A stretch of DNA of 64,000 bases from Anaerolineales bacterium (GCA_019454165.1 CP075367.1:956179-1020178); one strand, 5' to 3'; numbered from the stretch's first letter, positions 13,760 through 46,404 are shown. A program made the numbers and translations. The notes: generated by a model not told the origin, from the sequence alone.

Positions 13760-15202
13760 TTACCTGCGCCCCAGGCTCATGAACGGGCTGGGGCGGCGGA
13801 CGGGCGCCTCGTGCCGCGGCGGGATGTAGCTGCTGGCGACGTGCAGCATCCAGGCCACCGCGTCGAGCGTGTCGTCGTGCTCACCGTCAGGCCAGCGCAG
13901 CCACTCCTCGCGGAAAGCGCGCAGGAAGGGAGTCTCGACATCCGCCACCCAGGCGCGGCCGCTTTGGAACAGCGGGGCCATGCCAGCTTCGAAGCGGCGG
14001 CCCTTGGTCTTGCCGCCCGGGTGCAGGCGCATCAGCGGCAGCCGGGAAGTGCGCAGTAGCAGGTGATAGAACTCCTCGCCTTTGCCTACCGCTTCGACCC
14101 CGATCATGTGGGTGGAGGGATAGCGCTCGGCGAGGGCGTGCAGCTGGTGCTCGGCTTCACCCTGGCTGATGCGAGCGCGGTAGCCATCCACCAGGATGAT
14201 GCCGCCGCCGGGTTTCAGGCGGCCGATGGCGACGGCGAAATAATCCCTCGTGCGGCCGCGCAGCGCATCCGCCGTGCTGGCATAGTCCACGCCCATCACC
14301 ACGGGCCAGTCCATATCGATCTTCTCGTGCGGATAGGGCTGCAGCCATTCGGGACGCAGGTGCAAACCTTCGGCGGCTTTGAGGTCGAGCAGGTACATGC
14401 GGGCGAATTCGGCTTCGCCGGTGAGTTGGCGCAGCTTGCGGATGCTGCCGGCCGGGAACTTGTGCGCCCACTGCGAGCGGCCGCGGCGCAGGATGGGCGT
14501 GCTGGCGGTCTTGAAGCGCCGGGTGGCGATCAGCGTGGCCAGCGCATCGTTGCTGCGCCACGGCGTGCCGACCACAAGCTGCCAAGTGTGCGGCGTCACC
14601 GTGGGCAGGATCGTGCCGGTCAGGATCTTGATGACGGTCTGCAGCTCGCGGGCTGAGCGAGTGTTGCTCTCGTCGTGAATGTCGTCAATGAGCAGTAAGC
14701 CAGTGGGGTGCTTGCCGATGATGGCGCGGGACTTATAGCCCAGGCCGAGCAGGGTGGGGTCTTTGCCCTTCTCCTGGGCGCAGAGGGCGCGCCAAGCGGC
14801 ATAGTCGCCCGTGGTGTCTTTGACCTCATAGCCGGCCGCGCCCCAGCTCACCTTGCGGTCAGGCTCCAGGTGGCCGAAGGCGGCCTTCCAGCCGGCGTTG
14901 TGCTGGATCAGTTCGGCCACCTGGGCGGCAGTGTCGCGGGCGGTCTGGCCGCCGGCCTGGATGATGAGATGGCTTTTGTGGGGCTGCTGGCCGATGCGGA
15001 AGGCGGTGAAGGCGATGCTGAGGGTGGTGGTCTTGCTGGAGCCGCGGAAGGCGGTCACCACCAGGCCTTTGCCGGCTGCGCGGGCGGCGTACAGCGGCCG
15101 GATCCAATCACGCATGGCGTGGGCGGGCAGCGCCCGTTGGTACAGCATGTAATAGAAGCGCGCGAACCCCTCTGCGCTGTCTGGCAGTGTGACCGTTTCC
15201 AT
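13760..15202 (-). CDS. Phage terminase large subunit (TerL)-like protein, intact
   Basis: 480 aa. Walker A-like VVTAFRGSSKTT and Walker B-like GLLLIDDIHDE. The C-terminal RNase-H-like nuclease signatures are VMGVDYAST...YFAVAIG...DGEHDDTLDAVAWM. SD is CAGGGGGAGAC-ATG. Confidence 0.8.
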   Translation of the reverse strand: METVTLPDSAEGFARFYYMLYQRALPAHAMRDWIRPLYAARAAGKGLVVTAFRGSSKTTTLSIAFTAFRIGQQPHKSHLIIQAGGQTARDTAAQVAELIQHNAGWKAAFGHLEPDRKVSWGAAGYEVKDTTGDYAAWRALCAQEKGKDPTLLGLGYKSRAIIGKHPTGLLLIDDIHDESNTRSARELQTVIKILTGTILPTVTPHTWQLVVGTPWRSNDALATLIATRRFKTASTPILRRGRSQWAHKFPAGSIRKLRQLTGEAEFARMYLLDLKAAEGLHLRPEWLQPYPHEKIDMDWPVVMGVDYASTADALRGRTRDYFAVAIGRLKPGGGIILVDGYRARISQGEAEHQLHALAERYPSTHMIGVEAVGKGEEFYHLLLRTSRLPLMRLHPGGKTKGRRFEAGMAPLFQSGRAWVADVETPFLRAFREEWLRWPDGEHDDTLDAVAWMLHVASSYIPPRHEAPVRRPSPFMSLGRR

Positions 15203-15209
15203 GTCTCCC

Positions 15210-15249
15210 CCTGTGGCTACAAAGAACGCGGTCTTTGTAGTACCACAGG
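15210..15249 (-). promoter_or_regulatory. Stem-loop in the TerL 5' leader overlapping its Shine-Dalgarno
   Basis: CCTGTGG-c-TACAAAGA / TCTTTGTA-gta-CCACAGG. On the mRNA the 3' arm (CCACAGG) runs into the GGGGGAG SD. Confidence 0.4.
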
Positions 15250-15312
15250 CTGGGTATACCGATGGGAAATGGCCGGGTGTATCAACCTGCTTGACGCTTC
15301 AAGTGAGCCTGG

Positions 15313-17457
15313 CTATTCGGTGATGCCCCAGATGGAGATCGAGGAGCGCGTGACAGCCACCAGGTTCATTCCATCTGTGGAGATACTCATGCCGCGGATG
15401 GTTTGGCCTACGTCTACACGCCCGATCTCTTCGAAGCCGTCAGTGGCATGGAAGCGGATCGTGCCCTCCTCGCAGGCCACGGCGATCAGAGATTTATCGG
15501 CAGAGATGCCCACGCCACTGATCTCACAATCGTAGGGAATGCGCTCGACTTCGGCATATTCGCCCAACCGTACGATCCAGACGTTCTGCGGGCCAGCAAA
15601 CCCCGTTTCCGAACGTGCGGGCGTGACCACGATGGTGCCATCCGGAGCGAAGGCGGGTTGCACACCGGGGCAATAGATGGTGAGCTTGTCCATCACCAAC
15701 TGCCAGCGGTCAGGGTTATGGATGTAGAAGTTGCCGTTGGACGCGCTGTTGCCGTTCTCTGCAACGCAGTAGGTATGCAGACCCCCATCTGGCGGCAGGA
15801 AGGCGTTGTCGAAAAGGCCAAGCCCCCATGAGCCATAGCCGCGTATGTACTTGGCCAGCAGCGTGCCGGTCTCGTAGTTGATGACGTACGATTCCACGAG
15901 GCGCGAGTCGCCCGCCACGATCAGCTCGTAGTACAGGATCTTGTGGTCGGTATCCAAAGCCACCGGGTATAGCACGGTGGATGAAGTGTCCTGGTAATCC
16001 GTGCTGTAGATGACCGGGAAGCGATCTGAATTGCCGTTGTAGATGACGAACTTTGAGCTCGTCAACTGGTAGGCATGGTATTTGCCATTGGCGGCGAACA
16101 TACCGGAGAGCTGGTCTGCATACCGGTAGCTGATCGGCAGGCGGGTGCCGTAACACACCATGCGCTGCAGTTCACTAAAGACACACTCCTTCGAATCCAT
16201 GCGGCCTATTTGCAGGAATAAGTTCTGGTTGCTGTATCCCCTGAAGAACAGCTCTTGATCCCAGGTGGCGTAGGAGCGCGGGTTGGTGATGAATTCGGGG
16301 CTGCCGTCCAGATGAAAGAACAGCTCGCGTCCGGCAGCTTCGACTCTGCGATTGTCCAGGCTGGTGCGGCTGAACAGGAACCAGCCTTCGGTGGGGCAAT
16401 GCCACATCGAAACCGCCCGCTCGCGGGTAGCGAGGTAGCGGTCATCCGGACTGAAGACGGGCTTGTTGCGCGGGCCGCCACCATCTCCACCCGTGCATTC
16501 GGGATGCAGGGTGTGCTCGATCTCGCCCGTTGCCAGGTCCCAGATGTTGAGCTCCACTTCCATGAAGGCAAACTTCTCTTCACTGTTGGAGAAGCCCCAG
16601 CTGTTGCCGCTGGCTTGGTAGGTCATGGGCCGGAACACGGGCCGAATGGTCAGGACGAGCTCCTCGGTGGTCAGATCCCACACGCGCAGGAAGTTATCGA
16701 TCTGGGCGGCAATGTATTTGCCATTGCGGGAAAGCTCTGGTGCATAGCCGTGAATGGCGGTGTAGCCGCCCAGCCACTCGTACGAGATCTCGTTGGTGTC
16801 CAGGTCCAATACAAAGAAGCGGCGTTGGGTGGAGAAGGCGAGCTGGTTGCTGTCTGCCGAAAGCGCCGCGGTGGCGTCTTGCATGTTGAATTCGCTGGTC
16901 AGGTCACGGATCTCTTTGGTTTGCAAATTGACCAGGAAGGTTTGATCCACCAGAGCCCAGACGCCGTCAGATGTGACCTGCAGGTCCATCTTGTAGGTCT
17001 GCCAATAGTATTCCGGAGAGAAATGGAACTCGTCTTGAGGATGTTTTTCGCCGTTCTCAAAGACGAACAAACCGTCAAAATCACGCACCAGCACCAGCTG
17101 GCCGTCCTGGGCCGTGCGCACGACGGAGTTGAGCTTGCCGGTGAAGTGGGCGACTTCGACGACATCGCCAATATTTTCGGCCGTGATGGGCTGCGCCAGT
17201 TTGGGGATGGACGAGCCCCAGCTCACCGGCAGCACCAGCGGGGTGGGAGTAGGCGTGGGGCTGGGAGTGGCGGTGGGAGTGTTGCTGGGCGCCGAGGTGG
17301 CGGTGGCAGTTGTTTCAGGTGTGAGGGTCGAGGCGGCTGGAGCGCTCTGGCAGGCTGCCAGCAGGACGCCCAGGATCAGCAAGGATGTGTGCAATCTCAC
17401 GAATTTCCTCCCGGTTGCAGAGTGCGTTCTTGGTTGATATAATTTACCACTGCTCAA
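15313..17457 (-). CDS. WD40/beta-propeller repeat lipoprotein
   Basis: Lipobox LGVLLAAC and a Pro/Thr-rich linker ([14 protein letters not shown]). Repeated motifs include [11 protein letters not shown]...[16 protein letters not shown] and [20 protein letters not shown]. Confidence 0.65.
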
Positions 17458-17499
17458 GGCCCTGCCACCGGTGGGGTCTTTTTAATGGGAAGACTAGCT

Positions 17500-19356
17500 A
17501 TGCAAACACCTCGTACTGATCTTAGAAACATTGCCATCATCGCCCACGTTGACCACGGCAAGACCACCCTGGTGGATGGTTTGCTGCGCCAGGCGCGGGT
17601 GTTCCGTGAGAACCAGCAGGTAGCCGAGCGGGTCATGGACTCAAATGACCTGGAGCGCGAGCGCGGCATCACCATCCTGGCCAAGAACACGGCCATCCAG
17701 ATCATTGACCCTGCCAGCGGGCAACCGGTCAAGATCAACATCGTCGATACGCCCGGCCATGCCGACTTTGGCGGTGAGGTGGAGCGCGTGATGAACATGG
17801 TGGACGGCGTGCTGCTGCTGGTGGACGCGGCCGAAGGCCCGCGCCCGCAGACCCGCTTCGTGCTCAAGAAGGCGCTGGAGATGGGGCTGCGCGCCATCGT
17901 GGTCATCAACAAAGTAGACCGCCGCGGGGCGGATGTGACCCGCACCCTCAACGAAACCTTTGACCTGTTCGTGGACCTGGGCGCAACGGATGAGCAAGCC
18001 GATTTTCCGGTCGTGTACGCCATCGGCACCGAGCAGCGCGCCGGCCTGACCCCTGACGTGGGGCCGGATCTGCAGCCGCTGTTCGAGACGATCTTGAAGG
18101 AAGTGCCGCCTCCCATAGTGGATGCGGACGCGCCGCTGCAGATGCTGGTCACCACCCTGGACTATGACAACTACCGCGGCCAGACCGCGATTGGCCGCAT
18201 TTTTGCGGGCCGCATGAAGGTTAACCAGCCTGTGGCGCGCCTGACCCAGGACGGCAAGAACCTGCCCGAAGTGCTGCGCTACCTGTATCTGCAGGATGGC
18301 TTGCAGCGGGTGGAAGTGCAAGAGGCCAGCGCCGGCGATATCGTCGCCGTGGCGGGGCTGGAAGGCATCGCCATCGGCGAGACCCTGGCCGACCGCGAGC
18401 ACCCGGTGGCTCTGCCCGGCATCACCGTGGAGGAGCCGACTGTGCGCATGGCCTTCGGCGTCAATACGTCGCCGTTCGCCGGCCGCGAGGGCAAGTGGGG
18501 CACCAGCCGCAAGCTGCGCGAGCGTTTGTACAACGAGCTGCGCAGCAACCTCTCGCTGCGGGTTGAGGATACAGACAGCGCCGACACCTTCATTGTGTCG
18601 GGCCGCGGCGAGCTGCACCTGGCTATTTTGATCGAGACCATGCGCCGCGAGGGCTTCGAGTTCCATGTAGCCCGCCCGGAGGTCATCCTCAAGACGGATG
18701 GCGAAGGCAACACGCTCGAGCCGTTCGAAGAAGTGCATATCGAGACCAGCCCGGAGAGTGCGGGCGTGGTGGTGGAGATGATGGGCAAGCGCCGCGGTGA
18801 GATGCAGCAGATGGTCGAAGGCCCTGGCGGCAGCACGCTGATGACCTTCGTTGTGCCGACCCGCGGGCTGCTCGGCTTCCGCCAGCAGTTCCTGACGGCG
18901 ACGCGCGGCCGCGGCATCATGAACACCATCTTCGCCGGCTACCGCCCGGTGGCGGGCGCCATCACCTCGCGCGCCCGCGGCTCGCTCATCGCCTATGAAG
19001 GCGGCACGGCCGTGACCTACGGCCTGCGCGCCGCCGAGGAGCGCGGCATCCTCTTCATCGGGCCTGGCACCGAGGTCTACGCCGGCATGGTGGTGGGCGA
19101 GCAGCCGCGTGAAGGCGACCTGGAAGTCAATGTGTGCAAGACGAAGAAGCTCACCAGCGTGCGGGCTGACAGCCGCGGCGAGATCGAGCAGCGCCTGACC
19201 CCGCCGCGGGTGATGAGCCTGGACGAGTGCATCGAACAGCTGGCTGACGACGAATTGCTGGAAGTGACGCCGGAGAGTCTGCGCATCCGTAAGAAGATCC
19301 TGGATATGCATGTGCGCGGCCGCGAGGCCAAGCGCGCCAAACTGGCCCTGGAGTAA
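17500..19356 (+). CDS. typA: Translational GTPase TypA/BipA
   Basis: [33 protein letters not shown] and NKVDR GTPase motifs. Full BipA-length architecture with C-terminal KKLTSVRA...RLTPP. Confidence 0.95.
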
Positions 19357-19388
19357 AAAAAGGGCGGCCATGTGGCCGCCCTTTTTTT
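19357..19388. terminator. Intrinsic terminator
   Basis: AAAAAAAGGGCGGCCA-tgt-GGCCGCCCTTTTTTT. Confidence 0.9.
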
Positions 19389-19502
19389 GTTCTAAGTTCA
19401 GATTGCCCGAGTTATTGCCCTAGTTTTAGTGCATTCTTTATCAGGAGCAGTGCAGTGCGTAGCAGGATGCGCCAGCGCTGGGTGAGAGTAAGCTGTTGCC
19501 AG

Positions 19503-19883
19503 TTATTCCTTAGTTCGTTTAGATTGGCGAGCTCGTCTTGCTTTTGGTTTTTCATGTCCCGCTTTCAGCATAGTTTCGGCCGAAGCCAGTAGTTGCTGCT
19601 GTTGCTCGCTGGTGAGGCGTCCCCAGTTTCGAGCAATAAAACGGAGCTTTGGGTCAGGGTCTTGCAGGCCCAGGATCTCGTAGATCTCCGGCCCAAGTCG
19701 TTGGGCAAGTTTGCCCACGTTCTCCGCAGTTGGCTTGCGTAGCCCGTTCAAGTAATGACTTAACAATGGCGCCGAGATGCCAAGATGCTCGGCAAATTGG
19801 GCCAGTGTGGCGCGTTTGCCGCGCTGGCCCTGCCATTCCAGATATTTTTGTTCCAGCCAAGCTGGAAAAGCCAAAGCTTCCAT
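19503..19883 (-). CDS. HTH (XRE/phage-repressor-like) DNA-binding protein with basic tail
   Basis: From ATG 19883: MEALAFPAWLEQKYLEWQGQRGKRATLAQFAEHLGISAPLLSHYLNGLRKPTAENVGKLAQRLG. The C-terminus is KPKARRARQSKRTKE. The gene is visibly less GC-rich than its neighbours. Confidence 0.6.
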   Translation of the reverse strand: MEALAFPAWLEQKYLEWQGQRGKRATLAQFAEHLGISAPLLSHYLNGLRKPTAENVGKLAQRLGPEIYEILGLQDPDPKLRFIARNWGRLTSEQQQQLLASAETMLKAGHEKPKARRARQSKRTKE

Positions 19884-20009
19884 TTTTTCGCGTGTGTGTC
19901 CTCTTCGTTCGTTGGCACAACCCCTTTCTGCCTGGTCATTAGACAATAGTTGACGTCATCTGCGTGTATAAGTAATATACTCCCTGTTAACCACACAGGT
20001 GGGTTTCTT

Positions 20010-20777
20010 ATGAAGTTTCTCAAGATCACTGCATTTCTGGCCATTATTGCATTTTGCGCATGGGCGTTGTGGACCGGGCAACAATCGCCGCGGCCTACGG
20101 TGATCGCGGCTGTGCCCACGGCGGAGTGTGCTGCGCAGCACTTGCCGGCGGAGTATCACGCCCTTGGCTCGGCGCTGCGCGAGTTTGATGATGCGCTCAA
20201 CCTGGCCATCAGCGTGCCGCGTGACATGGTGATCGCCCAGGTGGAGCAGTTGCAGCGCGTGCGCCGCGAGGTTGAGGCGGCCCAGGTGCCGGCCTGCCTT
20301 GAGGCGTACCGGGCCAGTGTGGTGCGTTATATGAACCGTGTGGTCGATCTGCTGGTGGCGTTTGTCGCCGGGGCAGCTCCCAGCCAGATCTCGGATGCGT
20401 TGTTCGGCGCTACTGACTTGCGCCAGGAGATCTTTGCTGAGATCACATTGCTGACCGGTATCAGCCCCACGCCGTATCCGACCGCGGTTCCGTTGGCATC
20501 GGCTACGCCTGAAGCTGCGGTAGGCATCCCGGTCACTGGGGCACCCCAGGCCGCGCTGGCCCTGGTGACGCACGCGGATGGCGTAAATTTGCGTGAAGGG
20601 CCGGGGGTCAATTACACCTTTTACATCGTAGTGGGGGCGGGCAGCCAGCTGCCTGTTTTGGGGGTGGATGCCAGCCGGCAGTGGCTCAAAGTACAGGTCA
20701 ACGAGCAGGAAGGTTGGGTGTTCCTGCCTCTGGTCGAGCTCAATTTACCCGTAGAAAGCCTGCTTGTGCTCGAATAG
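20010..20777 (+). CDS. Membrane-anchored protein with C-terminal SH3b domain
   Basis: ATG 20010 gives MKFLKITAFLAIIAFCAWALW (TM anchor). The C-terminus VNLREGPGVNYTFYIVVGAGSQLPVLGVDASRQWLKVQVNEQEGWVF is bacterial-SH3-like. Confidence 0.6.
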   Translation: MKFLKITAFLAIIAFCAWALWTGQQSPRPTVIAAVPTAECAAQHLPAEYHALGSALREFDDALNLAISVPRDMVIAQVEQLQRVRREVEAAQVPACLEAYRASVVRYMNRVVDLLVAFVAGAAPSQISDALFGATDLRQEIFAEITLLTGISPTPYPTAVPLASATPEAAVGIPVTGAPQAALALVTHADGVNLREGPGVNYTFYIVVGAGSQLPVLGVDASRQWLKVQVNEQEGWVFLPLVELNLPVESLLVLE

Positions 20778-20802
20778 CCTTACATTTTTGAAATTTACTC
20801 CT

Positions 20803-20831
20803 TGACAACTTTCTAAACTGTTAGTAGATTT
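20803..20831 (+). promoter_or_regulatory. Sigma-70-type promoter (TTGACA-17-TAGATT)
   Basis: TTGACA at 20803-20808, a 17-nt spacer, and TAGATT at 20826-20831. It lies ~80 nt upstream of ATG 20914. Confidence 0.55.
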
Positions 20832-20913
20832 CAGGTAACAATTCTGTTAGGTGACCAGCCGCCTGGGGAACTTTCGCTGCTGCCTTCCGGGGGTCACACA
20901 TAAAGGGAGAACT

Positions 20914-25254: not shown

Positions 25255-25344
25255 TGCATCCTCGGCTCCTATCCCTTGACAAGTGCCATTGTAATTGTGG
25301 CTTCTAATTATTAGAGGGTACGATCGATTCCAAAAGGGGGAACT

Positions 25345-28151: not shown

Positions 28152-28357
28152 GGGGGGGGGGCGGGTCTAAGACCCGCCCTACGCGGCCGGTGTTTGAGTA
28201 ACTGCCAGCTGGCGGAGGACTGCACTGAGGGTGTGCGCTATTTAGAAGACCCCAGCGGGGAATCCTTCGCTGGTGGTGAGTCGGCGGTCTGGTGTGGGTT
28301 CAAGCACCCGCTCAGGATGACACGGGGGTGGTTTCGGCCTCGTTCGGAATGACAAAT
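28152..28357. repeat. Intergenic repeat element, copy B (same orientation as copy A)
   Basis: GGGCGGGTC-taa-GACCCGCCC hairpin, then GTCGGCGGTCTGGTGTGGG and TTCGGAATGACAAATC. These blocks are shared with copies A and C. Confidence 0.65.
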
Positions 28358-37652: not shown

Positions 37653-37801
37653 ATCATTCGGGCCGCGCGTGCTGCTAGCGTGTCGCCGGTTTCCTTTACT
37701 GGATTCACCTTCGCTGGCGCCTTGCTTTTGAGGCGCGCTTTGTCCGGCTTCAGCTTAGGAGGTTTGGCAGTCTTCGTGGTTTTAGCTTTCGGTTTTCCCA
37801 T
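37649..37801 (-). CDS. Small Lys/Pro-rich protein (50 aa), translationally coupled to paralog A
   Basis: MGKPKAKTTKTAKPPKLKPDKARLKSKAPAKVNPVKETGDTLAARAARMI. Its stop overlaps the next ATG (ATGA at 37649-37652). There is no clear SD. Confidence 0.35.
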   Translation of the reverse strand: MGKPKAKTTKTAKPPKLKPDKARLKSKAPAKVNPVKETGDTLAARAARMI

Positions 37802-37962
37802 TGCTACAAGTCCTGTCAGGCATGATAGTTGAAATTCGTTGGCGCTCCAATAACCTTGCATTTCTGATAGGCACTGCTGAGCATGTCCAGCAGCTTGACT
37901 TGGGGCTTCAAAAAGCGGTTTTTAGGCAAATGCGTGCTATTACAAGCTGCAAAGGGGGAAGT

Positions 37963-38322
37963 ATGCACGGGGGAAATACGAGTGACGGCGCGGACACCGC
38001 GCCACAGTCTGCTGGCATTGGCGCCAGTAAAAAGCAACAGCGCATCGCTGATCTGGTGAAGGAGCAACTGCACGGCCAGCTAAAGGAGGAGCTGGAGCAG
38101 GCGCTCGAAGCGCGCCTGGCGCAATGGAGCGCGCCAGCCGCCCCGGCTGGCGCCGAGCCCGGCCGCGCCAGCCGGGTGATCCCACCCGGCGGCGCGGGAG
38201 CGCCGGCGCCTGACCTGCGCGAGGAGTACGCCCGCCGCCTGGGCGCACTGCGCCCGGGCGACCTAGCGGCGGTGCTGGAGCTGAAGCGCGAATTCCGCAA
38301 GCGCGGGCTGGAGGTGTATTAG
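37963..38322 (+). CDS. Scaffolding-like protein (small, helical, immediately upstream of the capsid gene)
   Basis: SD AAAGGGGGAAGT precedes ATG 37963. 119 aa, charged/helical (QQRIADLVKEQLHGQLKEELEQALEARLAQW) with an Ala/Pro-rich middle. The function is inferred from position only. Confidence 0.45.
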   Translation: MHGGNTSDGADTAPQSAGIGASKKQQRIADLVKEQLHGQLKEELEQALEARLAQWSAPAAPAGAEPGRASRVIPPGGAGAPAPDLREEYARRLGALRPGDLAAVLELKREFRKRGLEVY

Positions 38323-38327
38323 AGCAA

Positions 38328-38350
38328 GGATGAAGGATGAAGGATGAAGG
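38328..38350. repeat. Tandem (GGATGAA)x3 simple repeat
   Basis: GGATGAAGGATGAAGGATGAAGG lies directly after the stop of the scaffold-like gene. The same word flanks the four-helix-bundle gene at 61 kb. Confidence 0.8.
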
Positions 38351-38388
38351 CGATACGACTTTAGGTATTTAGATGACAAGGGGGATGA

Positions 38389-39519
38389 ATGGCAATTTAC
38401 GATGGAATGAAGACAACCTACGCGGATACTGCCGCCCAGGCGCGTGCCATCAGCGATGTGGTGCAGATGATCGACCCGCGCGACACTCCGCTGCTGGCGC
38501 GGCTGGGGTTGGACAGCGCTCGCGAGAAGTTCAAGATCCGCATGAACGGGAACAAGGTCGAGCTGCTCGAAGACGAGCTCGACCCGCTGGTGACCGCCGC
38601 CAACAACGGCGAGACCATCGCGGTGGGCGACACCAGCTTTGTGGTGGCGGACGCCTCGGTGTTCCAGGATGGGCATGTGATCCTGATCGATGCCGAGTAC
38701 ATGGTGGTCAAGAGCGTGGACCTGGGCACCAACACGATCACGGTCTACAGCCGCGCCTATGGCGGCACGAACGCCACGCACGCGGCCAACGCGCCGATCC
38801 ACATCACCGCCATGGCACGCCTGGAGGGCGACGATGCCGACTACGGGCCGCTGGTGGCGTTGAACGTTCCGTTCAACTACACCAGCATCTTCCAGAAGGC
38901 GGTGCAAGTCAGCGGCACGCAGCAGGCCATCAGCCAGTACGGCATCGAGGATGAGTTCCAGTACCAGGCCAACAAGGCCGTGCCGCACTTGCTGCGCCTG
39001 GTGGAAGGCGCAGCCTTCCACGGCGTGCGGGCGGCTGGCTCCGCCAGCACGCCGCGCTCCACGGGCGGGCTAGGCGCCTTCATCACCAACAACGTGGTGG
39101 ATGCGGGCGGCGCCATCGCCAAGGCGGATGTCGACAGCCTGATGGAAGAGATCGTGATGGATGGGGGCAACCCGGACCTGCTGGTGATGAACCCGCGCGT
39201 CGCCAATGATCTGCGCGGCCTGCTGGACAACAGCACCTTCGTGCGCGTGGGCCAGGGCGAGCACAAGCTCGGCCTGGACGCGATCGAGCGCGTAGTCACG
39301 CAGTACGGCGAGCTGGAACTGGTGATGGATCGCTGGTGCCCGGTGCACACCGCCTATGTGCTGGAGAGCGGCAAGGTGGGCTTCTACACGTTGCGCGGCT
39401 TCGAGGCCAAGGAGCTGGCCCGCTCGGGCGACAGCCTGAAGGGCGAAGTGGTGGGCGAGCTGAGTTTGCTGGTGGCCAACAACAAGGCCCACGGCAAGAT
39501 CACCGGCATCACTACGTAA
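38389..39519 (+). CDS. Phage major capsid protein (HK97 fold, SU10/DUF5309-like family)
   Basis: 376 aa. The N-terminal block ISDVVQMIDPRDTPLLARLG...KVELLEDELD matches the I..I.P.DTP....G....EW.ED.L signature I associate with this MCP family. SD is ACAAGGGGGATGA-ATG. Confidence 0.8.
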   Translation: MAIYDGMKTTYADTAAQARAISDVVQMIDPRDTPLLARLGLDSAREKFKIRMNGNKVELLEDELDPLVTAANNGETIAVGDTSFVVADASVFQDGHVILIDAEYMVVKSVDLGTNTITVYSRAYGGTNATHAANAPIHITAMARLEGDDADYGPLVALNVPFNYTSIFQKAVQVSGTQQAISQYGIEDEFQYQANKAVPHLLRLVEGAAFHGVRAAGSASTPRSTGGLGAFITNNVVDAGGAIAKADVDSLMEEIVMDGGNPDLLVMNPRVANDLRGLLDNSTFVRVGQGEHKLGLDAIERVVTQYGELELVMDRWCPVHTAYVLESGKVGFYTLRGFEAKELARSGDSLKGEVVGELSLLVANNKAHGKITGITT

Positions 39520-39596
39520 GCAGGTGAACAGTGAGCAGTGAGGAGGGAGCAGGGCCGGTGGCCTTATTCGCAACTCGCTGCTGATTGTCTTGCTTG

Positions 39597-39635
39597 AACA
39601 GGCCTAGGCGAGGGGGAGCCTGGGCCTGTTTGTTT
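39597..39635 (+). terminator. Terminator-like hairpin directly downstream of the capsid gene
   Basis: AACAGGCCTAGGC-gaggggga-GCCTGGGCCTGTT (one mismatch) is followed by TGTTT. Confidence 0.5.
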
Positions 39636-39735
39636 AACTCCTTGACATGCGGATACGAATCCGCGCAAAGTGCAGCCGGCGTGCTATGAATGCGGCAGGC
39701 TGCGCGCGAATGGCGCAGCGGAACAAGGGGGATGT

Positions 39736-40563
39736 ATGTCGTACACGTTCAGTGAGTTGCTTCAAGACGCCTATACCGAATTGGGCCAGCTGCGCCGCGG
39801 CCTGGCCAGCGGCGGCAGCGCCAGCACGCTGGCGGATGCCGCCGAGCTGGCCGGCCAGTACCGCGAGGATGACTGGAAGGGCGGCGCGCTGTTCCTGGCG
39901 GCGGGCGGCATGCCGCCCGCCGGCGAGTTCGCTCGCGTGGTTGGCTTCGTCGCCAGCAGCGGCACGCTGGCGCTGGGCAGCAGCCTCAGCGAGCCGGTCG
40001 AGGCCGGCATGGCCTATGGGCTGGCCTCGGCGCAGTACCCGCTCGCCACCATGATCGAGCTGGCCAACAGCGGCCTGCGCGGCCTTGGGGATGTGCCCCA
40101 GGTCGACGAAGATGTGCTGCCCTCCAGCGCCCACACGCTGGCCTGGGCGCGCCGCCGCCCGCTGCGCATCGATTATCTGGCGGTGCCCGGTGTGAGCGCC
40201 GGCGACCCGTGGCGCACCTTGCATGATTGGGATTTTGTGCCCGCCGCGCCCGGCTCGCCCGGGATGGTGTTGTTCGCCGACCCGCTGCCGGCCGGGCGGC
40301 CGCTGCGCGTGTGGTACCTGGCCGCCCATCCGCGCCTGGCCGCGCATGGTGATGTGCTCGCCGAGGCGGTGGCGCCCGAACTGGCCGTGGCCGCCGTGGC
40401 CGAGCGTGCCCTGCGCTGGCAGTGCGCCCGCAAAGGCGGTGACGAAAAGCTGGCCCTGCTGTGGCAGGAGGCGGTGGAGGAGCTGCAAGCCGCCCGCCGC
40501 CGCTTCCCGATCTGGCGGCCGCAGCGCCCGGCCCGCCTGCTACGCCTGCGGGGGCAGGCGTGA
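39736..40563 (+). CDS. Virion-associated protein, adaptor / tail-tubular-A-like by position
   Basis: SD ACAAGGGGGATGT precedes ATG 39736. 275 aa with no recognisable motif. The function is inferred from its position after the MCP and before the large protein. Confidence 0.4.
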   Translation: MSYTFSELLQDAYTELGQLRRGLASGGSASTLADAAELAGQYREDDWKGGALFLAAGGMPPAGEFARVVGFVASSGTLALGSSLSEPVEAGMAYGLASAQYPLATMIELANSGLRGLGDVPQVDEDVLPSSAHTLAWARRRPLRIDYLAVPGVSAGDPWRTLHDWDFVPAAPGSPGMVLFADPLPAGRPLRVWYLAAHPRLAAHGDVLAEAVAPELAVAAVAERALRWQCARKGGDEKLALLWQEAVEELQAARRRFPIWRPQRPARLLRLRGQA

Positions 40564-43109
40564 GTGTGCGCGTCTACGCCGGGGCCAGCGTCGCCAGCCA
40601 CGAACTCAGCCTGAGCGATGGCGTGCTGACCTGGGGCTTGCGCTTGGAGGGCGGGGCGCAGGGCATCAAGGAGAGCGTGCTGACACCCTCCGGCTTGCGG
40701 CTCAACTGGGTCAGCGGCTTCGGCGCCTGGGAGCCGGGGCTGGCCCAGGTCGAGCAGCGTGATTGGAGCGGCGGCCGCGGCGCGGCCCGCTTCAGCACGC
40801 AGGCCGCCCGCCGCTTCTACGACAGCCAGGACGCCTGGACCCTGACGCCGGGCCGAGTACATGCCACGCCACAGTGGCGCTATGCCAGCGGCCTGCGTAC
40901 CGCGGCCCAGCGCCTGCCGGGCGATGTGCGCTGGCAGGCGCTGATCGGCGCGCAGCGCAGCCTGGCGGCCGCGTTCAGTGTGGCTGCCGGCGGCCTGGCT
41001 GCGAAGCAGGCGCGGGTCTGGCTGCGCCGGGTGGGTTCGCCCGGGCAGCTGACGCTGCAACTGCACGCGGATGCGGCCGGGCAGCCGGGTACGGTGCTGC
41101 CCGGCTCCACCAGCGCCATCACGCAGGCGGATGTTGGCGATGTCATCAGTCAGTTGCGCAGCTTCGATGTCTCCGGCTACAGCACGCCGCTCAGCGCGGG
41201 CAGCTATCACCTCTCGCTGCACGGGGCCGCGGCGGACAATGCCAGCAATCACTGGGAGATCGGCGTGCAGCGGCGTGCCAGCGGCGGGCACAGCTCGCCG
41301 GATGGCAGCGCCTGGACGGCCACCGAGTTTTGCGCCTACTACCGCGTGCAGGATGCGGATATCCCGCGCACCTTCCTGTTCTTCGAATTGCGCGGCGTGC
41401 TGTACGCGGTGGACCAGCGCGCCAATGGCAACGCCTCGCGCGTGTACATGAACGGCGAGCGCGGCGTCGCCACCAGCGGGGCGGCCGCCACGCTGAGCGA
41501 CACGAACCGCAACTGGCCGGCCGATCAGTGGGCTGGGGCATGGGTACGTATCCTGGCCGGCAAAGGGGCCGGGCAGGCGCGGCGCATTCTTTCGAACACG
41601 GTCAGCGTGCTCAGCGTGGCCGCCTGGGATCTGGCGCCGGACAGCACGTCTGAGTACATCATCTACGCCACGCCGCACTGGCGGGATGTTTCGCCGAGCT
41701 CGGGCGACCAGATCGATGGCACGGTGCGGGACGTGAGTGTGCTCAACGGGCAGGCGCTGTTCGCCCAGGGCTCCAGTGTGCCGATCCTGCGCATGCGTTT
41801 CAACGCCGGAGCTTCACCGCCCAAGCACGAATTTCTGGATGATGGCAGCAACACCGCCGACCTCCTGCATGTCTTCCAGCACAGCGAGCTTGGCCCGCAG
41901 GTGTGGCGCGGTGTGGCCAGCAATGCTCAGCTTTCGCGGGCCGCGCCGGCCGGCTGGCTTACGCCGCTCAGCTTCGGCACGGCGATCCAGTTGGGCGCGG
42001 ACGGCCAGGCGCTCCACAAGCTGTTGGATTTCAACGGCCAGCTGTGGGGCGTCAAAGCCAACAGTCTATGGATCGTTGAGCGCACTGAGCATGTTGCCCG
42101 CCACAACCTGGGGCTGGAGGCGTTTCCGCAACTGAGCGGCGGGCAACCGGCGCGGGTGTGGGAGGACAAGCTGTGGCTGGGCTGGGGCTGCAGCCTGCTG
42201 GTGACTGGCGGCAGCGGCCTGGCCGACGTTGGCCCGGGCCGCGGCGAGGGGCTGCCTGCCGGCCGCGGCGGCCGGGTGGAGGCGCTGGTGCCGCTGGGCG
42301 CTGGCCGCATGGCGGCCGCCATCGACGCCGGAGATGGGCATTCCAGTGTGATGGTGTGGGATGGCGAGGCTTGGCATGAGCTGCTGCGCGCCCCGCGGGC
42401 TGGCGAGCGCATCCGCGGCCTGTACTGGCAAAGCTGTCCGGGCAGCACGCCGCGGCTGTGGGTGGAGATGGGCGGTGAGCTGGCGTATGTGCAGCTACCC
42501 GCCTATGGCGAAAACCCGCTGGGCGATGCGGATCTGCAATACCAGCACGAGGGTGTGCTGGTAGGCAGCACTATCGATATGGAGGCCACGCTGCTGCCCA
42601 AGTTCCTCACCCAGCTCAGCCTCGTGAGCCGCAACCTGGGCGAAGGCGCACAGGTGGAGCTGGACTATCAGGTGGATGGTGAGATCGGCGGGCCGCGCTG
42701 GCGCCAGGCCGGCGGCTTCTACTCCTCGCCGCTGGATACGCTGACGCTGAACACGGGCGAGATCTCCGCCTTTCGCCCGCGCCTGCGCTTGCTCAGCCAG
42801 CGCGCCAGCAAACCGGCCACCGTGGAGGCGACCCAGCTGGAAGGCTTTGCGCGTACGCCGCAGAAGTACCAGTGGGAGCTGCGCGTGCGCCTGGGCGAGT
42901 TGCAGCTGGATGGCGGCGGCGGGCTTGACCCGGCGCCGGCGGCCTTCCTGGCCTGGCTGCGGCGGGTGGCGCGCAGCGCCGCCCGCATCCACCTGCGCTC
43001 CGTGTGGAGCGCGTTGGATGACACCTACGTCATCGTCGAGGCGCCCAGCCTGCAACGCGAGCTGGACAGCGAGGGCGGCGTGGCGGTGGTGAAAGTGCGC
43101 GAGGGATAA
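40560..43109 (+). CDS. Large virion-associated protein (849 aa), nozzle / tail-tubular-B-like by position and size
   Basis: GTG 40560 overlaps the preceding stop (GTGA) and follows GGGGG by 5 nt. The protein is beta-rich and repeat-like. The ORF-track start at 40461 would overlap the previous gene by 100 nt. Confidence 0.45.
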   Translation: MSVRVYAGASVASHELSLSDGVLTWGLRLEGGAQGIKESVLTPSGLRLNWVSGFGAWEPGLAQVEQRDWSGGRGAARFSTQAARRFYDSQDAWTLTPGRVHATPQWRYASGLRTAAQRLPGDVRWQALIGAQRSLAAAFSVAAGGLAAKQARVWLRRVGSPGQLTLQLHADAAGQPGTVLPGSTSAITQADVGDVISQLRSFDVSGYSTPLSAGSYHLSLHGAAADNASNHWEIGVQRRASGGHSSPDGSAWTATEFCAYYRVQDADIPRTFLFFELRGVLYAVDQRANGNASRVYMNGERGVATSGAAATLSDTNRNWPADQWAGAWVRILAGKGAGQARRILSNTVSVLSVAAWDLAPDSTSEYIIYATPHWRDVSPSSGDQIDGTVRDVSVLNGQALFAQGSSVPILRMRFNAGASPPKHEFLDDGSNTADLLHVFQHSELGPQVWRGVASNAQLSRAAPAGWLTPLSFGTAIQLGADGQALHKLLDFNGQLWGVKANSLWIVERTEHVARHNLGLEAFPQLSGGQPARVWEDKLWLGWGCSLLVTGGSGLADVGPGRGEGLPAGRGGRVEALVPLGAGRMAAAIDAGDGHSSVMVWDGEAWHELLRAPRAGERIRGLYWQSCPGSTPRLWVEMGGELAYVQLPAYGENPLGDADLQYQHEGVLVGSTIDMEATLLPKFLTQLSLVSRNLGEGAQVELDYQVDGEIGGPRWRQAGGFYSSPLDTLTLNTGEISAFRPRLRLLSQRASKPATVEATQLEGFARTPQKYQWELRVRLGELQLDGGGGLDPAPAAFLAWLRRVARSAARIHLRSVWSALDDTYVIVEAPSLQRELDSEGGVAVVKVREG

Positions 43110-43203
43110 GACCCCGAGTGACCAGGGAGCAGCAATGAGTGAGCAGCAACCAGTAATCAGTGAGCAGTAATCGGTGAGCAGGTACAGGTCTGCTGAGCAC
43201 GGA

Positions 43204-43259
43204 TCACTGATCCCTAATCCCTAATCCCTAATCCCTAATCACTGATCCCTGTTCACTCT
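43204..43259. repeat. Heptamer tandem repeat: (TCCCTAA)x4 flanked by TCACTGA/TCCCTGT/TCACTCT variants
   Basis: Four perfect TCCCTAA units at 43211-43238 and about 8 related units in total. The upstream half of the spacer (43110-43200) carries the inverse words (CAGTGAGCAG x4). Confidence 0.85.
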
Positions 43260-43287
43260 TGATGGCTAATGCCAGAAAGGAAACTCT

Positions 43288-43713
43288 ATGTACAGTTTTA
43301 TCTACAACGCCGGCAAGCTGGCTTTGCTGAAGGGCGAAGTGCAGCCGCTGGCGCATACGTTGCGGGCGGCGCTAGTGACAGATGCATACCTGGCGAACAA
43401 AGATGCGCATGCCGTCTTTGCCGACATCAGCCATGAGGTGACCGGCACCGGTTACACCGGCGGTGGCAAAGCGCTGACCGGTGTCACGCTGGTGCAAGAC
43501 AACGCCAATGACCGCGCCGCCTTGAAGGCCGACAATGTGGTGTGGAGCGTGGGGGCGTTCACGGCGCGGGCGGCGGTGCTCTACAAGGACACCGGGAACC
43601 CGGCCACCAGCCCGCTGCTGGCCTATATGAACTTTGGCGGTGACCACACCGTGAGCGGCGACGACTTCAATCTGGAATGGAGCCCCGAGGGCGTCATCTA
43701 CCTCGGCGAATAG
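43288..43713 (+). CDS. Conserved phage-like structural protein (141 aa)
   Basis: MYSFIYNAGKLALLKGEV...ALVTDAY...HEVTGTGYTGGGKAL...DNVVWSVGAFTARAAVLYKDTG resembles a small protein family I have seen in podophage structural modules. Its function is unknown. Confidence 0.5.
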   Translation: MYSFIYNAGKLALLKGEVQPLAHTLRAALVTDAYLANKDAHAVFADISHEVTGTGYTGGGKALTGVTLVQDNANDRAALKADNVVWSVGAFTARAAVLYKDTGNPATSPLLAYMNFGGDHTVSGDDFNLEWSPEGVIYLGE

Positions 43714-43716
43714 GCG

Positions 43717-45084
43717 ATGGCTACTTGGATCGAAGGTTTCCTGGAAAGCGAGAGCGAGCTGGCTCGCCTACCGGTGGTGACGCGCAGCGCCCATTCCACC
43801 CACTTTGAGCTGGGGGCGGGCGTGCAGCGGGCGGTCATCACCACCGCGCCGCAATACTTCCGCAGCCCGCAGGGCTGGCAGGCCTATGACCTGCAGCTGC
43901 GCGCCGATGCGGCCGCCCGCTGGGGCGCGCCGGGCGCCCCAGCACGCCTGGCCGCCGACGGCAGCGTGTGGCTGGGCGAGTACCAGCAGCACACGCGCAG
44001 CGTGGGCGTGTTGGTGGATGAGGCGTACACGCCGCTCTGCACGCTGCCCGAGGGCCGCGTGGCCGGCCCACGCTTGGTGCGCGAAACCAGCCCCTTCCGC
44101 CATGAGCTTTTGCTGACCGAGGATGGCGTCAAGGAGGAGCTGCATATCGCCAGCCTGCCGGATGGCCTGGAGGGTGGCTACCTGGTCTACGAGACCCACA
44201 GCCGCGGCGCGCGCCTCGGCCTCAGCTTTTCGCCCGGCAGCTCGATGGATGCGGCCGGCCGGGCCTGGCCGCTATATCGCTTCGAGGTCGGCGGCGTTAC
44301 CTACACCGGCCTGGCAGCCGAAGATCTGGCGCGGGCGGAGTTCCCGCTGGTGATCGACCCCACCGTGTCGTACGCTTCTGCCGGAGATGGCACCATCACC
44401 GGCTATTCCGGCAGCTACACCACCGCGCACACCACCTCGGTTCACTTCGATAGCGGGGCGGCCGAGCTGATCGTCGGCCAGGCGTTCGATACCGGCATCC
44501 CGCGCTTCTACATGTTCCGGGCCGCCATCAAGTTCAGCCTGGCGTCGCTGAATCCGTTGGCGGTCATCTATGCTGCCAACCTGCGCATGGTGTGCACGAT
44601 GGACGAGTCGACGCTGGCTGACTTCGGCGTGCAGATCGTCAAGCACAACTGGGCCGCCCAGGACCCGCTGACGAATGGCAACCGCGAGGCGGTGTTCGAT
44701 GCCTGCCTGGCGGGGACTACCGATGCGGTGTGGAAGAACACCAGCGCCATTACGGTGAATACGCAATACACCAGCGCGCCGCTGGATGTCAACTGGTTGA
44801 CGCCGGGCGGCACGGTGTACTACAGCCTGCGCAGCAGCCGGGATGCGGCCGGGGTGATCCCGCCCGCCAACGGCAACGAGTACGTACGCCTGGGGGCCGG
44901 GGCGCACAGCAACGTGAACCGCCGCCCGGCGCTAATCGTGGACTACTTCGCCGTGCCGAGTGCGGCCGGCAAGCTGGCTCAACCCAGCCCGCGCGTGCGC
45001 ATTGAGGATACGCGCATCAAGCTGCGCGCCCGCCGGCGCAAGACCTTGCTTGATGCGCGCAACAGGGGGAATGATGGCAGATAG
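43717..45084 (+). CDS. Fibre/receptor-binding-like structural protein (455 aa)
   Basis: It starts 3 nt after the preceding stop. It is beta-rich and ends in a basic tail. The function is inferred from position. Confidence 0.4.
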   Translation: MATWIEGFLESESELARLPVVTRSAHSTHFELGAGVQRAVITTAPQYFRSPQGWQAYDLQLRADAAARWGAPGAPARLAADGSVWLGEYQQHTRSVGVLVDEAYTPLCTLPEGRVAGPRLVRETSPFRHELLLTEDGVKEELHIASLPDGLEGGYLVYETHSRGARLGLSFSPGSSMDAAGRAWPLYRFEVGGVTYTGLAAEDLARAEFPLVIDPTVSYASAGDGTITGYSGSYTTAHTTSVHFDSGAAELIVGQAFDTGIPRFYMFRAAIKFSLASLNPLAVIYAANLRMVCTMDESTLADFGVQIVKHNWAAQDPLTNGNREAVFDACLAGTTDAVWKNTSAITVNTQYTSAPLDVNWLTPGGTVYYSLRSSRDAAGVIPPANGNEYVRLGAGAHSNVNRRPALIVDYFAVPSAAGKLAQPSPRVRIEDTRIKLRARRRKTLLDARNRGNDGR

Positions 45085-45403
45085 TGCAGTCTGGCTGATC
45101 GACAGCCCGGTCAGCATGCTGGCCGGCGAGCAGATCGCCTACAGTGTGGATTGGCAGGGCGCCACCAGCGTCAGCGCGCCGCACGCCACGGTGTACCGCA
45201 ACGGGGCCGACATCACCGCCGAGGCGATGGACGCCGGCGATGCGCATGTGATCACCGGCAGCGTGCTGACGCTTAAAAAGCTACGCGCCCTCGATGCCGA
45301 TGGGGGCGCGCGCTATGTGGTGCTGATGGGTGCGCTGGTGGACGGCAACCAGGAGCGGCGTAAGCTGCTGGTGCAGGTCGTCTCGGCCAGTGCAGAAAGC
45401 TAG
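45071..45403 (+). CDS. Small beta-rich protein (110 aa) ending the plus-strand structural string
   Basis: ATG 45071/45074 directly follows AGGGGGA and overlaps the previous gene by 14 nt. The product begins MMADSAVWLIDSPVSMLAGEQIAYSVDWQG. Confidence 0.45.
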   Translation: MMADSAVWLIDSPVSMLAGEQIAYSVDWQGATSVSAPHATVYRNGADITAEAMDAGDAHVITGSVLTLKKLRALDADGGARYVVLMGALVDGNQERRKLLVQVVSASAES

Positions 45404-45567
45404 GGTTTCGACACTTGCTTGTAACGCATGTAGGCGGTTGCCATCGCCCAGGCCAGCAGGCCGGCGATGCAGCCAAGCACAAGGTTGTCTCGGATCAGGC
45501 CAGTGCCTACGCCAACGCCCAGCCCGAGCCAGATCGCCTGGCGGCTGTTCATCTCGATAGGCTTCAT
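45400..45567 (-). CDS. Small membrane protein (55 aa, Gly-zipper)
   Basis: Below the ORF-track length cut-off. My translation is MKPIEMNSRQAIWLGLGVGVGTGLIRDNLVLGCIAGLLAWAMATAYMRYKQVSKP. It shares a palindromic CTAG stop with the plus-strand gene. Confidence 0.45.
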   Translation of the reverse strand: MKPIEMNSRQAIWLGLGVGVGTGLIRDNLVLGCIAGLLAWAMATAYMRYKQVSKP

Positions 45568-45569
45568 GG

Positions 45570-45839
45570 CTACTTCTGGCTGGCCGAGCCGGCCGCGCCG
45601 AAGGCCGCGCCCAGCGCAACGCCGATGGCGATGCCCATGCCGATATTGTCCGTCGCCACGCCAATGGCGACGCCCAGGGCAAGCCCGGTGGCCAACGAAA
45701 CCGGGAAGGTGTTGGCGCTACCCTTCTTGGCTTCCGGCTTCTTGGCGGCGCTCTTGGTTACAGGCTTCTTGGCCGCGGTCTTCTTGGCAGCCGGTTTGGC
45801 GGTCTTCTTGGTGGTGGTCTTTTTCTTTGCGTTAGCCAT
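45570..45839 (-). CDS. Small protein with Lys-rich N-terminus and Gly-zipper TM C-terminus (89 aa)
   Basis: SD GAGGAGAT precedes ATG 45839. The product is MANAKKKTTTKKTAKPAAKKTAAKKPVTKSAAKKPEAKKG...LATGLALGVAIGVATDNIGMGIAIGVALGAAFGAAG. Confidence 0.55.
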   Translation of the reverse strand: MANAKKKTTTKKTAKPAAKKTAAKKPVTKSAAKKPEAKKGSANTFPVSLATGLALGVAIGVATDNIGMGIAIGVALGAAFGAAGSASQK

Positions 45840-45888
45840 TTTCTCGATCTCCTCATCGGGATTGTAGTGCATTTTGAAGGGGGAAACT

Positions 45889-46095
45889 ATGGATACGGAT
45901 ATGCGTGTACTGTTCGAAGCGATCAATGCCTTGGGGGTAGTTGGCCTGCTGATGTTCATGGTGCTGGCGTTCTACCGAGGTGACTTGATCGCCCGCAACC
46001 TGCTCGACCGCATCTTGAGCTTGTATGAGGAGCAGCTGGACCAACTGAGCCAGCGCATTCTTGCCAAGTTGGAGGAGGTGATGAAGAAAGACTAG
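45889..46095 (+). CDS. Holin-like small protein (1 TM + charged coiled C-terminus)
   Basis: SD GAAGGGGGAAACT precedes ATG 45889. The product is MDTDMRVLFEAINALGVVGLLMFMVLAFYRGD...EEQLDQLSQRILAKLEEVMKKD. Confidence 0.45.
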   Translation: MDTDMRVLFEAINALGVVGLLMFMVLAFYRGDLIARNLLDRILSLYEEQLDQLSQRILAKLEEVMKKD

Positions 46096-46152
46096 GAATG
46101 GGAGTTGATCGGAGATGGTCTGGTCTTGATCGTTGATCTTTAGGGGGGAACT

Positions 46153-46404
46153 ATGGAACAAGCATTGTATTGGCTGACCGGCGCGCTGGGCGTGCCGTTG
46201 GTGAATTGGCTCAAAGCCCGCTACGGCCTGCAGGGCCGCGCCGCCATGTGGCTCACCACCGCCGTGGCGGCGCTGCTGGGCCTGGCGGCCGCGCTGCTCA
46301 GCCGTGAGCTTGCGCCGGGCAGCCTGCAGCCGGAGGGGCTGCTGGCTGCCTTCGGCCAGGTGCTGGCCGCCGCCACGCTGGCCTACAAGCTGCTGGCGGA
46401 GTAG
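46153..46404 (+). CDS. Holin-like small membrane protein (83 aa, 2-3 TM)
   Basis: SD TAGGGGGGAACT precedes ATG 46153. The product begins MEQALYWLTGALGVPLVNWLKARYGLQGRAAMWLTTAVAALLGLAAALL. Confidence 0.45.
   Translation: MEQALYWLTGALGVPLVNWLKARYGLQGRAAMWLTTAVAALLGLAAALLSRELAPGSLQPEGLLAAFGQVLAAATLAYKLLAE

Follow-up and report, generated by a model that had tools for sequence, protein, structure and literature searches.

A 64,000-nucleotide stretch of DNA from an Anaerolineales bacterium (GCA_019454165.1, CP075367.1:956179-1020178; this whole stretch is called the window below) carries a scattered set of phage-derived genes, hereafter the element. Ten of these genes start behind a Shine-Dalgarno (SD) sequence built on a run of at least five G (G5). 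TerL, on the minus strand, is followed by TypA, a rhomboid protease gene, the portal gene, a nirK-like gene and an ABC transporter, and then by the main cluster, which includes a scaffold-like gene, the gene for the major capsid protein (MCP) and a series of smaller and larger conserved genes. The genes lying between these three loci are cellular, coding for TypA/BipA, the rhomboid protease, PAS/GGDEF proteins, a nirK-like copper oxidase, GNAT acetyltransferases and a complete ABC transporter. Coordinates are given in Table 1.

TerL was recognised by profile searches (phrog_38, 2e-56, and PF17289), and MCP by its match to PF17236 (SU10_MCP, 4e-63) together with sequence similarity to the head protein of phage SU10 (PDB 7z45, 4.5e-9). 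No HMM matched the portal, and a profile-versus-PDB search gave a spurious match only. Its AlphaFold model (AF2, 34 homologues, pLDDT 69.6) matched the portals of Pan3, SU10, N4 and T7 with E values of about 1e-10 (4.5e-10 for the SU10 portal, 7z44, in the fold search). The putative scaffold gene is so called from its position between portal and MCP and from its composition. Searches of Pfam, PHROG and PDB sequences gave no informative match for g39736, g40560, g43717 and g45074, nor for the two small open reading frames (ORFs) of the operon described below, and no tail gene (adaptor, nozzle or tail fibre) was recognised by these searches among the downstream genes. Integrase, repressor and replication genes were not found in the window, and no replication, integration or lysogeny module was found in the loci of relatives.

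Runs of at least five G were scanned mechanically on both strands of the window. The first-pass annotation of this DNA had listed nine G5 sites upstream of phage-like genes. All nine were found again at their positions, with one start to be corrected and one site to be added. The start given at 45071 is in fact the second ATG, at 45074, where the orthologues begin (ATG GCA GAY), and a tenth site had been overlooked at 2053(-), where CACAGGGGGACATC-ATG opens an ORF of 73 amino acids. At all ten sites the run, mostly followed by A, lies on the coding strand and ends 4 to 5 nt upstream of the start codon. N-terminal alignment with orthologues confirmed the start codons of the element genes. Two sites sit inside upstream coding sequence and yet keep this distance. 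At 40560 the site reads GGGGGC and falls within the last codons of the upstream gene, with the GTG start overlapping its TGA stop, and at 46153 the run is of six G (G6). The SD context is near-uniform, AAGGGGGA(A/T)NT-ATG, where AAGGGGGA takes the place of the more usual AAGGAGG. No G5 is present at two genes of the main cluster, g43288, which has AAAGGAA, and g43717, which starts 4 nt past the upstream stop and has no SD.

To compare element and cellular starts, gene models were built from codon usage and every candidate start was scored for pairing with ACCUCCUUU; the cellular background consisted of about 47 genes of the window and about 100 database-called starts in sister loci. A G5 SD was present at 10 of 13 element starts and at 0 of 47 cellular starts (Fisher p = 3.8e-9). 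When only starts with a 5-nt core were counted, there were 10 G5 and no GGAGG in the element, against no G5 and 5 GGAGG in cellular genes (p = 3.3e-4). The five cellular genes with a full core (7035, 17400, 51504, 51895 and 59715) all use GGAGG or GGGAGG, and the cellular SDs quoted in the first-pass annotation read as it had stated. Its claim that cellular genes of the window lack the G5 SD was borne out by these counts, and in the sister genomes none of the database-called cellular starts had one either. GGGGG was found 68 times in the whole window, while 233 occurrences were expected from dinucleotide composition; because it is about 3.4-fold rarer than expected, G-runs are generally avoided in this genome. 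Eight of the 12 AGGGGGA heptamers, counted on both strands, are SDs of element genes, and all remaining pairs of a G5 and a start codon in the window are antisense or internal to known genes.

Predicted pairing was strong for the phage-like genes and weak for most cellular SDs, and at least six cellular genes look leaderless, with a -10-like hexamer 6 to 7 nt before the ATG. This suggests that leaderless mRNAs are frequent in this lineage. It is against this background of weak SDs and leaderless-looking genes that the element stands out. Leaderless-type starts, with no SD, were noted at 4827(-), 4886(+), 28077(-), 31605(-), 60051(+) and g13002, and also in L036 and L037 (L numbers designate loci of relatives); the hexamers are TATAAT, TATCAT, TACAAT and TAGAAT. 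The gene g13002, downstream of TerL, was considered as a member of the element and rejected, having its own leaderless-type start (TACAAT-N7-ATG) and being membrane-protein-like.

The G5 block would form the core of an extended SD of consensus A-A-G-G-G-G-G-A placed 4 to 5 nt before the AUG. Written AAGGGGG, it differs from AAGGAGG in having G for the middle A; its duplex with the 16S tail 3'-UUCCUCC-5' would comprise six Watson-Crick pairs and, at the centre, a G·U wobble. Predicted duplexes with ACCUCCUUU had energies of -8.6 to -11.2 kcal/mol for the G5 sites versus -10.2 to -10.9 kcal/mol for cellular AGGAGG. The anti-SD was taken as the canonical CCUCC, for which the cellular GGAGG and AGGAG SDs of the window give indirect support. 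Folding predicted the SD regions to be mostly unpaired (unpaired probability 0.35-0.69), with no common leader hairpin, no conserved structure and no SD sequestration across sites, and no Rfam match was obtained in the window. A structured operator, such as a CsrA-type GGA in a hairpin loop or a riboswitch, was rejected on these grounds. In E. coli, poly-G SDs initiate strongly, which the authors credit to G·U wobble pairing, and they are rare among native genes (GGGGG at 73 versus GGAGG at 327 of 4566; Kuo et al. 2020, PMC7263185).

Conservation of the sites was then read from the relatives. The TerL G5 is kept at 96, 94, 82, 80 and 77% protein identity and the portal G5 down to 81%, and the motif is also kept at scaffold, MCP and g39736 in sister genomes. 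At the portal, AAAGGGGGAACT-ATG is identical in four genomes (window, L032, L033 and L034) despite diverged sequence further upstream. Elsewhere, orthologous sites swap G5, G6, GGAGG, GGGAGG and GGAGGG among sisters, the purine being always retained: the MCP site is GGGAGG in L007, the g45074 site GGAGGG in L001 and L007 and GGGAGG in L008, the g40560 site GGAGG in L008, and the run before g46153 has four, five or six G. Conversely, g43717 has a G5 in L008 and none in the window, and the orthologues of g43288 and g43717 have GGAGG or GGGAGG in L001 and L007. Outside the clade of the window the same genes have GGAGG, GGGAGG or AGGAG. A G5 or G6 is found before g39736 also in L013, L018 and L026, and this site appears to be where G5 arose earliest. 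The ratio of G5 to GGAGG was 40:9 in the clade of the window versus 1:9 in other relatives with a GC content at third codon positions (GC3) of 0.78-0.86 (p = 3e-5). Because this difference occurs at similar GC3, G5 is, on these counts, a trait of the clade that base composition does not simply explain. GC pressure as its sole cause was rejected, as equally GC3-rich relatives keep GGAGG.

The tenth site belongs to a small operon, in which a helix-turn-helix (HTH)-like ORF of 141 amino acids (2429-2004) comes first and the 73-amino-acid Zn-ribbon-like ORF second. Both ORFs and the G5 SD are kept in the metagenome contig L038, with 79% (HTH-like) and 75% (Zn-ribbon) identity, and the promoter region of the HTH-like ORF is conserved there as well. 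Neither ORF matched a Pfam or PHROG family. In L021 and L022 the gene next upstream of TerL codes for a homologue of the HTH-like protein (44-45% identity), at the place where a small terminase (TerS) is usually found. The first-pass annotation had proposed to look for missing members, TerS among them, by means of the motif: the only other G5-SD ORF in the window shares its operon with this TerS-like HTH protein, so that the G5 SD correctly flagged one more element operon within this window. The start codon of the HTH-like ORF lies in a palindrome, ATAGAACAATAGTTCTAT, which looks like an operator and would point to autoregulation. The palindrome ATAGAACAATAGTTCTATG at this start, downstream of a TTGACA, is conserved (window 2430-2500(-), L038 420-483).

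Table 1. Element genes, associated signals and rpsU in the window
Feature	Coordinates	Strand	Start	SD	Remarks
Zn-ribbon-like ORF (CxC...CGGH), 73 aa	1832..2063	-	2053	G5, 2059-2063	
HTH-like ORF, 141 aa	2004..2429	-			candidate small terminase or regulator, from its position
TerL, 480 aa	13760..15211	-	15202	G5, 15207-15211, CACAGGGGGAGAC-ATG	
Bipartite motif, TTGATA-N35-TGGTAC	15240..15285	-			before TerL; same spacing in L032, L033, L035, L036, L037
Looser bipartite motif, TTGACA-N35-GGGTAC	25276..25321	+			before portal
Portal, 576 aa	25336..27075	+	25345	G5, 25336-25340, AAAAGGGGGAACT-ATG	AF2 fold match
Bipartite motif, TTGACT-N35-TGCTAT	37895..37940	+			before scaffold-like gene; extended -10 type
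Scaffold-like gene, 119 aa	37954..38322	+	37963	G5, 37954-37958	
MCP, 376 aa	38380..39519	+	38389	G5, 38380-38384, ACAAGGGGGATGA-ATG	
Terminator-like 14-bp hairpin + UUUGUUU	39596..39638	+			just after MCP; -28.3 kcal/mol, z = -2.9
Bipartite motif, TTGACA-N35-TGCTAT	39642..39687	+			before g39736
g39736, 275 aa	39727..40563	+	39736	G5, 39727-39731	conserved cluster gene
g40560, 849 aa	40550..43109	+	40560 (GTG)	GGGGGC, G5 at 40550-40554	conserved cluster gene
g43288 (141 aa) and g43717 (455 aa)	43288..45084	+		no G5	g43288: phrog_644
g45074, 109 aa	45065..45403	+	45074	G5, 45065-45069	cluster gene
g45889, 68 aa	45879..46095	+	45889	G5, 45879-45883	cluster gene
g46153, 83 aa	46143..46404	+	46153	G6, 46143-46148	membrane-like cluster gene
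rpsU (ribosomal protein bS21)	51044..51274	+			sole non-phage gene to keep a link with the element in distant relatives

Homologues of MCP with 67-99% identity are found in many metagenome-assembled genomes of Anaerolineales/Chloroflexota, often on contigs of 0.2-4.4 Mb, the nearest genome being Anaerolineales bacterium ACE_CHL7 (JAHBVE01, 99%); isolated phages reach only 26-31%. The element genes co-occur across about 25 Anaerolineales loci. In L019, mapped by tblastn, TerL, portal, scaffold, MCP, g39736, g40560, g43288, g43717, g45074 and g46153 are nearly contiguous, and this order is taken as the ancestral one. Other genomes show TerL and portal displaced or in inverted orientation, and MCP parted from g39736 by insertions, and in the clade of the window cellular genes split the set into at least four loci. 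The layout of the window is kept, over the stretches that each locus covers, in JAHBVE01, JAHCIJ01, JAHDWF01, DAOMSJ01, CAZUTS01 and one JGI contig. Between the window and these relatives, element genes have a synonymous divergence (dS) of 0.42-0.95 and a ratio of non-synonymous to synonymous divergence (dN/dS) of 0.06-0.30; flanking cellular genes have a dS of 0.62-1.13 and a dN/dS of 0.05-0.24. From the shared layout and a dS matching that of the flanking host genes, we conclude that the element is old, vertically inherited and under purifying selection, and that it is not a recent prophage. An intact or recently decayed prophage was rejected for the same reasons, the set being moreover split by conserved cellular genes. 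That the scattered genes form one functional unit, as had been argued from their SDs, is upheld by their contiguity in L019, their co-occurrence, their divergence in step with the flanks, and a promoter-like motif that they share (see below). Split frames were noted in the portal of JAHBVE01 (L032 10001-11730) and in TerL of L019 (3847-5374), L021 and L022, with at least two reading frames in each case; the element may be decaying locally, or the assemblies may contain homopolymer errors.

Of the non-phage genes in the window, only rpsU, which codes for ribosomal protein bS21, keeps its linkage to the element in distant relatives. It was found in seven distant loci, L019 (8813-9004(-)), L002 (8870-9013(-)), L012, L014, L021, L022 and L027, usually on the opposite strand and 0.3-3 kb upstream of the scaffold gene (between portal and scaffold in L019). 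Its position is inside the head module in L019 and partly so in five other loci. In the clade of the window it lies 4.6 kb downstream of the cluster.

No classical -35/-10 promoter was found in the cluster by a scan for the sigma-70 consensus. A bipartite motif, TTGAY-N35-TGNTAY, was found before TerL, the scaffold gene and g39736. It has these three occurrences in 128 kb (both strands), for about 0.12 expected, a count that is partly circular as the pattern was derived from these same sites; a slightly looser form adds the portal only. Its downstream half resembles an extended -10 element (TGnTAYnnn). Every sister genome has this motif, at unchanged spacing, before the same genes, and it precedes the scaffold gene or g39736 in L009, L013, L014, L016 and L023, the scaffold-gene motif in particular being present in every sister genome and in the distant L009, L014, L016 and L023. 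The portals of L036 and L037 have TTGACA-N35-TGGCTAC upstream. Transcripts started from these motifs would have leaders of only about 13-14 nt at the portal and scaffold genes, beginning just before the SD. The terminator-like hairpin just after MCP was overlooked by a terminator scan and confirmed by folding; its loop holds an AGGGGGA that is not an SD.

Several further features of the window were recorded. Two small glycine-zipper membrane genes, 45400-45567(-) and 45570-45839(-), lie on the opposite strand inside the cluster and are kept only in the clade of the window. The 45839 gene has the SD GAGGAG, the 45567 gene has no clear SD, and neither has a G5. An XRE-type HTH gene (PF01381) at 19503-19946(-), between TypA and an SH3-domain gene, is conserved in all sister genomes (L032 4629-5009; L036 4960-5340; L037 6580-6957). 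It lies in the stretch that separates TerL from portal, and it may have a role in the control of the element. Tandem repeats of 7 nt make up four intergenic spacers of the cluster, at 38326-38350 (AAGGATG x3.6, right before the MCP leader), 39519-39552 (AGCAGTG x4.7), 43116-43181 (AGTGAGC-like) and 43210-43250 (ATCCCTA x5.9). The AAGGATG repeats look like reiterated SD-like sites, and a 7-nt periodicity is also seen in spacers of relatives (e.g. GCTAATA GCTAATA in L001). Finally, the spacer that separates a dioxygenase gene from a GNAT gene holds a homopolymer of ten G (28152-28161) and, immediately after it, a GC-rich hairpin (CGGGTCTAAGACCCG).

Taken as a whole, these observations lead us to favour the following reading. 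G5 is probably a clade-specific spelling of an ordinary strong SD, with one wobble pair, borne by one vertically inherited phage-derived set. The carriers belong to an SU10-like, podovirus-type set. Besides TerL, portal, scaffold and MCP, with about seven genes downstream of these, it counts the TerS-like HTH protein and the small Zn-ribbon protein; its genes have strong SDs, and no fewer than four of their transcription units have a promoter-like motif in common. The G spelling would have arisen within one clade, and would be tolerated or maintained there since a helix of 7 bp is long enough to make the wobble energetically neutral and to leave the middle purine free to be G. We infer that the ribosome binds these sites through the canonical anti-SD, and no separate control mechanism would be necessary. 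Several points weigh against so plain an account. It gives no reason for the change from A to G at about ten independent sites of a single clade, nor for the absence of this change from cellular GGAGG. GC pressure alone fails to account for the G spelling, given the 40:9 and 1:9 ratios. The five strong cellular SDs are all GGAGG though G makes up 72% of purine-ending two-fold codons, which suggests that some directional force acts on the element alone. The comparison with cellular genes covers the 47 or so genes of the window and their orthologues, and the Rfam scan of the whole window gave no RNA family and no rRNA, the organism's own 16S tail being thus assumed.

The shift to G may also be given a regulatory meaning, as in the suggestion of the first-pass annotation that the shared motif hints at a common translational control. 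The results do not establish such a control: G5 is predicted to pair as well as AGGAGG and to be unsequestered, alternates with GG(G)AGG in sisters and is absent from distant relatives. Dedicated translational control is possible but gains no support from what was found, and a specific form of it, in which G5A is an operator for a trans-acting regulator (protein or small RNA) that would have the particle proteins co-translated under particular conditions, seems to us rather unlikely. Candidates for the regulator would be the 73-amino-acid Zn-ribbon protein of the element or a bS21-dependent state of the ribosome. It would account for the shift to G of at least nine sites in one clade, for which GC content and cellular SDs fail to account, and for the great uniformity of the SD context; the Zn-ribbon ORF itself bears the motif and is linked to the element, and rpsU is linked to it in the seven distant loci, phage bS21 having been proposed to favour late phage mRNAs (PMC9723584). 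Yet at four or five of the genes concerned the sisters have a GGAGG-type SD in place of G5 while the proteins are still under purifying selection, no hairpin or second motif is conserved beside the SD, relatives with rpsU adjacent to the element have ordinary SDs, and homology searches of Pfam and PHROG identified no regulator. Somewhat more credence, though still little, is given to a neutral by-product, by which rarely expressed genes needing SD pairing drift to the G·U variant under GC-biased mutation and well-expressed cellular genes keep A. The fraction of G at the central position in the clade, 40/49 (0.82), is indeed near the 0.72 of purine-ending two-fold codons, window and L001 disagree at about half of the sites for a dS of about 0.5-0.8, which is roughly a neutral rate, and low-GC relatives have A at this position. 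However, other high-GC3 relatives keep GGAGG, four genomes have the same AAAGGGGGAACT at the portal in spite of divergence further upstream, and the presumed low expression of the element is an assumption. GC-biased drift in rarely expressed genes explains part of the shift to G, but not the retention of A in other GC-rich relatives.

Two more accounts were considered. The genes could be recent prophage fragments, G5 being the SD habit of the previous host of the phage. They are of phage origin, and the cluster has a GC content of 0.65-0.71 versus about 0.62 around it; but their dS equals that of flanking host genes, six genomes share the dispersed layout, with the same cellular genes in between, the GC content of the locus varies from 0.46 to 0.65 among relatives, the nearest isolated phages stop at 26-31% identity in MCP, and relatives on viral contigs have no G5 at portal or MCP starts. 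We regard this origin as very improbable. Hardly any weight is left for an action of the motif on DNA or transcription, as a promoter, operator or packaging site, even though a short motif conserved where several transcription units begin might invite it. Its distance is fixed to the start codon, whereas the promoter-like motif lies at a variable 29-55 nt upstream; it also precedes internal, translationally coupled genes (40560, 45074 and 2053), and it is always on the coding strand. One further reading can be imagined, in which poly-G SDs, the linked bS21 and the Zn-ribbon protein together form a translation-selection system that marks particle mRNAs off from the cellular, often leaderless-looking, mRNAs. 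We hold this to be a long shot; if true, it would be a private translational code of a hitherto undescribed Chloroflexota gene transfer agent (GTA).

Like canonical and other poly-G SDs, the G5 sites are purine-rich, lie a few nt upstream of the start and are complementary to the CCUCC tail of 16S rRNA. They differ in that the poly-G form is here the rule for one co-inherited set and absent from the cellular genes seen, in at least seven related genomes. As to the element, it looks like a domesticated, GTA-like one. RcGTA, the GTA of Rhodobacter capsulatus, has a head-tail cluster and several dispersed loci under common host regulation, and makes a particle of siphovirus type. The element shares with GTAs such as this one chromosomal head and packaging genes, vertical inheritance, purifying selection, several loci and shared regulatory signals, and, in the 64 kb and in the loci of relatives, no integrase or replication genes are in view. 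In contrast to RcGTA, it belongs to Chloroflexota (Anaerolineales), has an SU10-like MCP (PF17236) and a podovirus-type portal, and is known from its genes alone. With the head module of phage SU10, a Kuravirus-type podophage, it has in common the MCP family (PF17236, 7z45) and the portal fold (7z44), but the similarity is remote (26-31% in MCP for the nearest isolated phages), and the genes are non-contiguous and do not make up a phage genome. A bS21 gene inside a phage structural module is an arrangement described by Chen et al. 2022 (PMC9723584), and the opposite-strand rpsU just upstream of scaffold/MCP in L019, L002, L012, L021 and L022 recalls these bS21-encoding phages; here, however, rpsU is chromosomal and may be the host's only copy, and relatives with an adjacent rpsU have no G5. 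In the literature, we found no description of a GTA or of a conserved domesticated phage in Anaerolineae/Chloroflexi, nor of DUF5309 elements.

The motif alone is a spelling variant of a well-understood signal, and most of the interest lies in the element that it marks. It serves as a marker that picks out the scattered members of a phage-derived set, and the shift from A to G, clade-wide, at about ten independent SDs and absent from the cellular genes seen, makes a small and clean test case for SD evolution. The gene set itself is conserved in many Anaerolineales, with its own type of promoter and the genomic hallmarks of a GTA. If particles are made, it would add a podovirus-derived lineage to the GTAs, and would represent a domesticated virus that has retained transcription signals of its own, along with an SD spelling that is distinct in one clade.

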